Below are positions 1,486-2,820 of a stretch of DNA of 30,989 nucleotides, in pieces. The position numbers were made by a program, and so were the translations under genes. The notes below the pieces were generated by a model. It was given only the letters and a program-made list of their open reading frames with translations, was not told where the DNA came from and did no database searches. The stretch spans positions 1 through 30,989 of the forward strand of contig QIEW01000280.1 of NCBI GenBank assembly GCA_003230535.1, in the 5' to 3' direction. Position 1 is the first letter of the stretch. Each line of letters begins with the position of its first letter. The DNA comes from a bacterium (GTDB lineage: Bacteria; SZUA-182; SZUA-191).

Positions 1486-2334
1486 ATGCCGGCTGATAAT
1501 GTCACTATATACCAACCTGACAAGCAGCTCCACATGGGATTTTGGGCTGTGTGGAAAGAGATGTTTGTGGAGCTTGCCCGCAGCCGTGAGTTGATCTGGC
1601 GGTTATTTCTGCGAGATTTCTCCGCCAAATACAAACAATCGCTGCTAGGTGTTTCATGGGCAGCGATAAATCCTTTAATTACTGTAGGGGTGTTTGTGTT
1701 TTTAAACCGTTCGGGGGTTATGAATATACAAACGGCGGATGTGCCGTATCCAGTGTTTGCCCTGTTAGGGCTGACCATATGGGTGGTTTTCTCCAAAGGC
1801 CTGGCGGCCTGTACCAGTAGTATTGTCTCGGCCGGTTCTATGGTGGTTAAAATTAATTTCCCCAAAATATCTTTGGTAATCGCCGCCATGGGGCAAGCCA
1901 TTGTGGAATTACTGGTAAGGATAGGGTTAACCATTGTGGTTTTTATAATATTTGGGGTCATGCCTTCGGGAATGGCGCTGCTATTTCCCTTACTAATCTT
2001 ACCAATATTTTTCCTTGCTTTGGGACTGGGCTTTTTTCTGGCGCTGCTGGCCGGCTTGTTTCGGGATACAGTCAATTTGGTAACTTTGCTGACCACCTAT
2101 CTCCTGTTTTTAATGCCCGTGGTTTATCCCCCTCCCGAATCGGGCATTCTTGGTATAATTAACCAATGGAATCCATTGAGCATTATAATTGTTAGCTGCC
2201 GGGAAGCGGTTCTTTATGGAAGTATCCCAAATCTGGGTGGATATATGTGGTCATCAATCTTTTGCCTGGTTGTATTCCTTATATCCTGGCGGCTGTTTCA
2301 TCTGGTGGAAACCAAAATCCCAGAGAGGATTTAA
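1486..2334 (+). CDS. wzm: ABC-2 polysaccharide export permease
   Basis: RELIWRLFLRDFSAKYKQSLLGVSWAAINPL motif, about 6 hydrophobic segments, and a late LTTYLLFLMPVVYP...WNPL segment. Confidence 0.93.
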   Translation: MPADNVTIYQPDKQLHMGFWAVWKEMFVELARSRELIWRLFLRDFSAKYKQSLLGVSWAAINPLITVGVFVFLNRSGVMNIQTADVPYPVFALLGLTIWVVFSKGLAACTSSIVSAGSMVVKINFPKISLVIAAMGQAIVELLVRIGLTIVVFIIFGVMPSGMALLFPLLILPIFFLALGLGFFLALLAGLFRDTVNLVTLLTTYLLFLMPVVYPPPESGILGIINQWNPLSIIIVSCREAVLYGSIPNLGGYMWSSIFCLVVFLISWRLFHLVETKIPERI

Positions 2335-2363
2335 ACCACTGATGAACGCAGATAAACACAGAT
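2334..2363 (+). repeat. 30 bp element made of three ~10 bp units (consensus about ACAGATGAAC), copy 1
   Basis: aaccac tgat gaacgc agat aaacac agat. It overlaps the wzm stop and contributes the start of the GxxExxY ATG. Confidence 0.85.
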
Positions 2364-2724
2364 GAATAAGGATGAAATTACTGAAAAGATAATTGGGTGT
2401 AGCTTTACCGTTTCCAACATCTTAGGATGTGGTTTTCTTGAGAAGGTGTATGAAAACGCTCTGGCTCATGAGTTGAGGAAAAATGGATTAAAAGTCAACC
2501 AGCAGCATAAGATAACGGTTAAATATGACGGTATTATTGTTGGGGAGTATGTAGCGGATATACTTATTGAAGATCAAGTAATTGTTGAGTTGAAAGCATG
2601 TAAGAACTTAGAAGATGTACATCTTGCCCAATGTATAAATTATTTGAAAGCTACCGGTTTACACATTTGCCTTTTGCTGAATTTTGGTACTCCAAAGATT
2701 CAAATAAAAAGGGTCATTTTATAA
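2362..2724 (+). CDS. GxxExxY protein (PD-(D/E)XK nuclease-like fold)
   Basis: LGCGFLEKVYENAL (GxxExxY motif), and YVADILIEDQVIVELKA (D...ExK motif). Confidence 0.95.
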   Translation: MNKDEITEKIIGCSFTVSNILGCGFLEKVYENALAHELRKNGLKVNQQHKITVKYDGIIVGEYVADILIEDQVIVELKACKNLEDVHLAQCINYLKATGLHICLLLNFGTPKIQIKRVIL

Positions 2725-2726
2725 TA

Positions 2727-2816
2727 TTAACCACCGATAAGCACAGATAGATACGGATAAAACTAATTAAAAGAAAATCCTATAATCTGTGTTCATCGGT
2801 GTCCATCTGTGGTTAA
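2727..2816. repeat. Long imperfect inverted repeat: copy 2 (direct, 2729-2758) and copy 3 (inverted, 2785-2814) of the 30 bp element around an AT-rich 26 nt loop
   Basis: Left arm aaccac cgat aagcac agat agatac ggat. Reverse complement of the right arm aaccac agat ggacac cgat gaacac agat. Outer ends ttaaccac...gtggttaa. Confidence 0.85.
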
Positions 2817-2820
2817 AAAC

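Follow-up and report, generated by a model that had tools for sequence, protein, structure and literature searches.

Small genes framed by hairpin-forming repeats are known from several bacterial systems. The intervening sequence (IVS) of the Coxiella 23S rRNA has a 28-bp terminal stem, carries tandem GACAGAT heptamers before a small open reading frame (ORF) and is excised by RNase III (PMC4990558). The Ssn nucleases (GIY-YIG fold) are flanked by hairpin repeats that they cut, and it was shown experimentally that Ssn cuts single-stranded DNA (ssDNA) and modulates transformation (PMC11893778). Tandem-heptamer hairpins without genes have also been published as unexplained repeats (e.g., in Geobacter and in Xanthomonas/Nostoc). 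Here, we analyse a cassette found in a 30,989-nt stretch of bacterial DNA (hereafter the window; positions 1 to 30,989 of contig QIEW01000280.1, assembly GCA_003230535.1, GTDB lineage SZUA-182; SZUA-191), in which a gene of the GxxExxY family, framed by inverted arms of tandem 10-nt units, separates the operon partners wzm and wzt. By analogy, we lean towards reading it as a nuclease gene with its cognate repeats, of the kind represented by REP/RAYT (repetitive extragenic palindromes and their associated tyrosine transposase) or by NTS/Ssn.

To our knowledge, no function is known for this very common family (PF13366/TIGR04256), of which a single genome often holds several copies. Among the published work mentioning GxxExxY or PF13366 we found none on flanking repeats or on this gene-plus-arms design. 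What is new here is the exact empty site, the comparison of arm with codon conservation, the wobble test, the deletion series, and the co-occurrence of gene and hairpins (with its exceptions).

The cassette and its empty sites

The cassette occupies positions 2335-2820 of the window, in a spacer that otherwise measures 3-7 nt, as delimited by the joints of empty sites. In G001, the closest species-level relative to have both orthologues (68% and 58% amino acid identity for Wzm and Wzt, respectively), the two genes are 3 nt apart and Wzm ends in the same residues (IPERI*). In public metagenomes, a 985-nt contig (run X2) matches 2020-2334 and 2821-3383 at ~85% nucleotide identity and omits exactly 486 nt, with 'TAA' in between, while in contigs of run X3 base 2334 is followed, after 4-7 nt, by 2822 or 2825. 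The initial annotation, made from the letters of the window, had proposed that gene and repeats form a single unit and that insertion directly after a stop codon would spare the host operon, and had suggested a comparison of wzm-wzt junctions in relatives. Both proposals are borne out by these joints, by the recurrence of gene plus arms in varied contexts and phyla, and by the position of the cassette in a tiny post-stop spacer that leaves both host reading frames intact. Thus, the cassette is very probably an insertion in which gene and arms arrived together, and horizontal acquisition is the best reading of its origin. Its components are as follows:

1486-2334, + strand: wzm (ABC-2 permease, PF01061), upstream host gene, whose TAA stop (2332-2334) directly borders the cassette
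2335-2820, + strand: whole cassette, 486 nt, very probably inserted; missing from relatives (empty-site contigs)
2334-2363, + strand: arm 1 (5' arm), three 10-nt units, AACCACTGAT / GAACGCAGAT / AAACACAGAT
2342-2365, + strand: seven-codon mini-ORF (MNADKHR) within arm 1, read directly from the sequence
2362-2724, + strand: GxxExxY / PF13366 gene, intact, 120 aa, predicted PD-(D/E)XK nuclease fold
2729-2758, + strand: arm 2, direct copy of arm 1 located 3' of the stop codon, 74% to the arm 1 region
2759-2784, no strand: AT-rich loop of 26 nt separating arms 2 and 3
2785-2814, - strand: arm 3 (3' arm), inverted copy that pairs with arm 1 or arm 2
2821-4044, + strand: wzt (ABC ATPase; ABC_tran and Wzt_C), downstream host gene; its ATG lies 6 nt past arm 3

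The 120-aa product matches TIGR04256 (GxxExxY; 150.7 bits, cut-off 35, residues 5-119) and PF13366 (PDDEXK_3; 148 bits, cut-off 22), the latter being its sole Pfam match, and the gene is indeed the one that the initial annotation had placed between wzm and wzt. It contains the motif G24-x-x-E27-x-x-Y30, D66 and E76-x-K78; G24, E27, Y30, D66 and K78 are the same in all of 38 sequences and E76 in nearly all. An AlphaFold2 model built on the 38 sequences (pLDDT 97.4) has an alpha-beta core that corresponds to a minimal PD-(D/E)XK core, and its best fold matches (Z 6-8.4) are Cas4 SSO0001, the nuclease domain of BpuSI, AF1548, Hjc, MGME1 and tRNA-splicing endonucleases. As no match stands out, the fold assigns no functional subclass. 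We therefore hold, with high confidence and in line with the nuclease-like fold named in the initial annotation, that the protein is a predicted nuclease of the PD-(D/E)XK fold. A sequence search found no solved structure, and PADLOC and PHROGs yielded no match to a defence or phage family.

All three arms measure ~30 nt and consist, as initially described, of three 10-nt units, each with a GAT end. Arm 1 opens with the final A of the wzm TAA, the GxxExxY ATG (2362-2364) overlaps its end and two more degenerate units run on into the first codons of the gene, so that the periodicity noted at the outset is present in the sequence. Arm 1 and the reverse complement of arm 3 are identical at 25/30 positions, while arms 2 and 3 are 72% complementary over 32 nt. 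The predicted pairing of the second and third copies (and of the first and third) was recovered by folding: as DNA, the arm 2/arm 3 hairpin reaches -14.2 kcal/mol (z = -4.35), and in an RNA fold of 2320-2830 the arm 1-arm 3 and arm 2-arm 3 pairings compete. Arms 1 and 3 form the inverted arrays, with the extra direct arm 2 yielding a 3' hairpin. Both the alignment with the orthologue and the joints of the empty sites support a wzt start at ATG 2821.

No promoter-like site was found on the + strand of the cassette and no terminator-like T-run after the arms; lacking such a promoter, the cassette is probably read from the operon. A start codon inside arm 1, transcription from the operon and competing stems are features that would suit an IVS-like RNA element, in which a stem formed by arm 3 with arm 1 or arm 2 of the operon transcript is cleaved by RNase III and the ORF is either removed from the wzm-wzt message or insulated from it, the protein being mere cargo. 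The stem, heptamers and RNase III excision of the Coxiella 23S IVS provide the precedent. Rfam returned no rRNA match for the locus (sub-threshold miRNA-like matches only).

The mini-ORF begins 8 nt past the wzm stop and its TGA overlaps the GxxExxY ATG (ATGA); a Shine-Dalgarno sequence was found neither before the nuclease gene nor before wzt. We speculate that the mini-ORF (2342-2365) might act as a translational termination-reinitiation relay from wzm. In another relative (locus L037, G004:C483) the same wzm-wzt junction holds a different insert of ~670 nt with two small ORFs, one of them DUF2283-like by eye; small genes seem to have landed at this junction more than once.

Arms beside GxxExxY genes and selection on their sequence

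The generality of the design was assessed in 30 loci from 40 relatives and in the 80 closest homologues (one genome per species), the latter found with the single window protein as query. Inverted repeats were scored between the upstream and downstream flanks and compared with shuffled controls, at thresholds of >11 and >=15. Flanking inverted arms score >11, above every shuffled control, in 86/103 GxxExxY loci, and 77 of the 103 reach 15; among 299 random positions of this genome one exceeds 11 and none reaches 15. The arms are therefore enriched beside GxxExxY genes, as a survey of flanks had been expected to reveal. Their median length across loci is 32 nt and their median complementarity 91%; those of the window are 79% complementary and somewhat decayed. 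The 5' arm mostly abuts or overlaps the start codon and the 3' arm lies ~19 nt past the stop, while the three-arm layout of the window recurs in 11/72 other elements. A common reading of the outer ends is (T)TAACC[A/G]C ... G[C/T]GGTTAA; some elements carry an inverted repeat that reaches another 5-20 nt outward.

The 80 closest homologues (59-72% amino acid identity) are spread over more than 10 phyla, including Acidobacteriota, Planctomycetota, Cyanobacteriota, Chloroflexota, Pseudomonadota and Verrucomicrobiota, and sit in unrelated contexts at locus GC contents of 41-69%. These comparisons show that gene and arms are inherited together and transferred across phyla as one unit.

The unit RAAC[A/G]CNGAT, with a period of 10, occurs in nearly all of these homologues, and NGAT units are present in 53/61 scored elements of the subfamily at 59-72% identity. 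Between elements of this subfamily the arms are 78-80% identical (76-78% beyond the anchoring heptamer), whereas codon positions 1, 2 and 3 of the gene retain 67%, 79% and 35% identity, respectively, and the 30 nt outside the arms 29%. Because synonymous sites are saturated, recent transfer offers no explanation for the conservation of the arms. They are conserved like codon position 2 across phyla, and their unit tracks the protein clade, from which we conclude that they are selected for their sequence; the comparison shows arm sequence to be under purifying selection.

The clade dependence is visible at several depths of the family. All 6 scored homologues at <=46% identity carry other units (GGAA, GAAT, AGAG, AAAG, GAAG), and the GxxExxY genes of five further genomes, whose identity is lower, have correspondingly different units. 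Among distant relatives the unit period varies between 8 and 10 nt, the 10-nt period being specific to the protein subfamily of the window, so the early argument that a period of one helical turn favours binding to one face of the DNA does not hold in general. Within the subfamily, two well-supported sister clades, each on a long branch, have switched their units (to CGCAAAAC and to CGCAAAT). Across the sampled sequences the unit type is thus shown to follow the protein clade. Label changes on the protein tree (11 observed, 13-14 in shuffles) are a weak statistic that we place no weight on, as most non-GAT labels are singletons. In a register test, cross-arm unit identity was 8.92 of 10 in register vs 8.03 out of register (p = 0.02), a merely suggestive outcome because choosing the best diagonal biases it.

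Residue 19 (window 2416-2418) is N in 96% of the close GAT-type homologues, H in the CGCAAAAC clade and R in an element with the unit CGCCGAC, and residue 7 changes from T to S in both switched alphaproteobacterial clades. We regard residues 7 and 19 as candidate specificity residues; with three small clades, this is a lead only.

Could the arms be intergenic hairpins of an ordinary kind (terminator- or REP-like), placed beside a small gene by chance and with no functional link to it? Hairpins are common between co-directional genes, and the arm 2/arm 3 hairpin taken alone resembles a generic stem-loop, with nothing but sub-threshold miRNA-like matches in Rfam. The locus counts given above and the co-variation of arm type with protein clade across phyla effectively refute this explanation, and the arms are not followed by a T-run; we consider its probability negligible.

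The same data bear on the IVS-like RNA element. An RNase III stem needs only complementarity, yet the unit is ~78% kept across phyla and tracks the clade. Arm mismatches that are G:T on the sense strand (66) are as frequent as those on the antisense strand (67); the absence of a sense-strand wobble excess points to DNA rather than to sense RNA pairing. We reason that, for a sequence that travels with a gene across phyla, the simplest reader would be the product of that gene. The proposal that the protein acts on its own repeats was already made in the initial annotation, and the conservation of the arms together with their match to protein clade indirectly supports its recognition part; nuclease action is a step that we can only infer. 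On balance, we think it slightly more probable than not that the protein recognises its own arms.

Gene-less hairpins, mobility and the competing readings

This genome holds a second GxxExxY cassette (C14:7421-8027, - strand, locus L022), which separates a 4Fe-4S (Rnf-like) gene from its neighbour. The ORF of this cassette is disrupted by a frameshift, TGA and TAG, and its arms are analogous to those of the window, with the unit CACAGAG in place of CACAGAT. Nine gene-less elements of this AGAG type are present in the same genome:

C4:16671-16849
C11:9819-10152
C12:3995-4093
C25:4301-4548
C25:6605-6856
C28:3049-3226
C97:1797-1893
C100:2446-2770
C111:8465-8562

Both C25 copies align with the C14 cassette over the 5' arm and then from the last three ORF codons through the 3' untranslated region to the 3' arm, a pattern which indicates that they are ORF-deleted derivatives of a C14-type cassette. 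The ~97-nt copies on C97, C12 and C111 represent further internal deletions and, since the same deletion forms occur at several loci, they must have multiplied after deletion. In a relative (G011), the GxxExxY model gave 47 matches, largely fragments interrupted by stops, which points to a burst followed by decay.

Hairpins of the GAT type are far more numerous elsewhere. A complete Pyrinomonadaceae chromosome, which has only one GxxExxY gene, contains 244 matches to the pattern CRCNGATRRACRCNGAT (118 and 126 on the two strands), most of them arranged in close +/- pairs, and a Scytonema genome with three such genes contains 142; the reversed pattern, used as control, gave 0 matches. Among 121 genomes from the class of the Pyrinomonadaceae chromosome, at least 10 matches were found in 12/15 that encode a homologue at >=55% identity vs 21/106 that do not (Fisher 8e-6, with kin not independent). 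These counts show that gene-less hairpins with the same arms, as recognised by pattern, exist and have multiplied in some genomes.

In the source metagenome (run X1; seen at 2310-2410 and 2785-2818), contig depth over arm 1 is ~1090 vs 18 for the rest of the locus and many loose contig ends fall at arm borders, indicating that far more abundant organisms of this vent sample share the arm type, some of it in gene-less hairpins with loops of 18-21 nt. Joints from 2363/2364 to 2779/2785 (X1) and from 2368 to 2795 (X3) were considered as excision at this locus and rejected: their sides (<=28 nt) span arms only, and we read them as gene-less hairpins elsewhere in the communities.

Taken by analogy with REP/RAYT or NTS/Ssn, a nuclease with its cognate repeats would work as follows. 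The protein would read the repeated units of its own arms in a sequence-specific manner, probably as an oligomer on DNA, and would nick or cut at these units, while gene-less hairpins would be handled in trans, as they are in those systems. A cut in the arm might then either drive copying (i.e., mobility) or serve another DNA transaction, such as regulation or the processing of ssDNA. We incline to the nuclease and cognate-repeat element as a whole; that its mobility is driven by the protein is, to our mind, doubtful.

Several observations weigh against this reading, and most heavily against its mobile version. No excised form or excision variant assignable to this locus was seen in the source metagenome. 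Target-site duplication is absent, direct identity of the flanks at k = 2 being found in 5/72 cases (5.3 expected) and at k >= 5 in 0. Allowing up to 8 mismatches, no further copy of the window's arm type was found in this genome (the metagenome-assembled genome is 88% complete), so the scan for dispersed repeats and solo copies that had been envisaged at the outset came back empty. Strand transfer cannot be expected from a 120-aa PD-(D/E)XK protein alone. The gene-less copies share ~50 nt of extra flank per side with an outer inverted repeat of its own (two subgroups have shared outer flanks of ~40-50 nt, with outer inverted repeats such as CTCACCTTACGCAA ... TTGCGTAACATGAG), which means that the multiplied unit may exceed the arms, as a larger or nested palindromic element. 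Furthermore, 12 genomes with at least 20 GAT-type arm matches have no close homologue, and the 5 of them that were checked hold GxxExxY genes only with other units; hence, hairpins can persist, or multiply, with no detectable cognate gene. Lastly, of the relatives' loci for genes of the four-helix-bundle family TIGR02436, 10/24 also score >=15 (0/299 for random positions), and the fact that unrelated genes have the same arm design implies that the architecture is independent of this nuclease. The TIGR02436 loci (23S IVS-protein, Avd-like; L136-L165) display inverted arrays of tandem units such as AAGGTAA, AGCCTGA and GAAATTC.

For the IVS-like RNA element this last parallel is an argument in favour. 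The gene-less hairpins, divided equally between both strands in the Pyrinomonadaceae chromosome, speak against it, as do the kept unit and the missing wobble excess, and we judge an RNA element of this kind improbable.

The self-mobilising or homing unit postulated in the initial annotation is, in view of the missing target-site duplication, solo copy and excised form, still hypothetical at this locus. Recombination between copies 1 and 2, which would leave a solo hairpin here, is plausible. The closest relatives in which an empty site was seen are at ~85% nucleotide identity. A 219-nt contig of run X2, which stems from a different study and a 2025 sample, differs from 2625-2843 at 3 positions (99%) and covers the 3' end of the cassette with its wzt junction, i.e. 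an occupied site. Public metagenome contigs gave no sign of strain-level movement of the cassette, and a look-up of the exact protein, aimed at strain variants, yielded nothing beyond this locus in the source sample.

Such stability would be expected of a domesticated or regulatory pair that does not move, in which the units serve as operators (autoregulation of a nuclease that may be toxic) or as Ssn-like marks for ssDNA cutting during transformation or recombination, and which spreads by ordinary horizontal transfer and recombination. All evidence of sequence-specific reading of the arms applies equally to such a pair, Ssn offers the precedent, and neither target-site duplication nor strain-level movement was seen. 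In addition, four loci of Deltaproteobacteria/Desulfobaccales (L062, L068, L074, L083; proteins 66-70% identical to that of the window) hold the cassette at one shared site, with the same flanks and a gyrA-like gene immediately downstream, from which long vertical persistence at a site can be deduced. Genome-wide marking is, however, unavailable in this genome, where the cognate arms occur only around the gene, and the multiplied ORF-deleted derivatives and the hundreds of hairpins found elsewhere require some copying process. We therefore regard a non-mobile pair as rather unlikely, and we retain the nuclease with cognate repeats as the explanation towards which the evidence tilts.

Comparison with described systems

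The clade-matched, selected arms offer a concrete and testable substrate for a function-orphan family (PF13366/TIGR04256), and the data tie this family to gene-less tandem-unit hairpins that reach hundreds of copies in some genomes. For annotation, the cassette accounts for operon partners (such as wzm and wzt) that are sometimes split by a small 'hypothetical' gene. Should the protein cut its arms, it would be the third independent nuclease fold, after HUH and GIY-YIG, found inside its own cognate repeat, and a possible source of short-site-specific nucleases. We tentatively put forward, as a possibility that we consider unlikely at present, that GxxExxY proteins are nucleases with sequence specificity for the tandem 8-10-nt units of their own arms and constitute, with gene-less hairpins, a very widespread and undescribed class of autonomous and non-autonomous hairpin elements, the PD-(D/E)XK counterpart of RAYT/REPIN. 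If so, the class would account for many tandem short-repeat hairpins between bacterial genes that have so far lacked an explanation, and its proteins would form a family of programmable, unit-specific DNA cutters with a specificity readable from the clade (e.g., N, H or R at residue 19).

Among known elements, miniature inverted-repeat transposable elements (MITEs) and DDE transposons share with the cassette the terminal inverted repeats and the internally deleted derivatives that keep both ends and multiply. They differ from it in that the cassette has no DDE transposase and no target-site duplication, and in that its arms are internally tandem-repetitive.

The ORF-bearing 23S IVS elements (Coxiella, Leptospira; S23p ORF) resemble it in having a small ORF inside a stem of terminal inverted repeats and in being wedged into a host transcript with host function kept; in Coxiella, tandem short units also abut the start codon. 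Unlike these, the cassette sits in the spacer of an mRNA operon (wzm-wzt) rather than in rRNA helix 25 or 45, its cargo is a nuclease-fold protein, the wobble signal is missing and the sequence of its arms is conserved beyond pairing.

With Ssn/NTS-SRM the cassette has in common a small stand-alone nuclease gene framed by hairpin-forming repeats, a distribution across phyla and, in some genomes, a large number of repeats. Its protein has the PD-(D/E)XK as opposed to the GIY-YIG fold, the arms are built of tandem units, and the present case is known from sequence and a structural model alone.

The comparison with REP/RAYT is drawn on both sides. The protein is a 120-aa PD-(D/E)XK one, whereas RAYT is a Y1 HUH protein (IS200/IS605-type); the arms comprise 2-4 tandem units of 8-10 nt, whereas REP is one imperfect palindrome; and the cognate GAT arm type is not dispersed in this genome, in contrast to the second, AGAG type. 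Alike in both are the single small nuclease-type gene enclosed by inverted copies of a repeat that, for the cassette in other genomes, is also dispersed gene-less, the match between repeat type and protein clade, the absence of target-site duplication, and the presence of one gene alongside tens to hundreds of hairpins (one gene and 244 matches in one chromosome).

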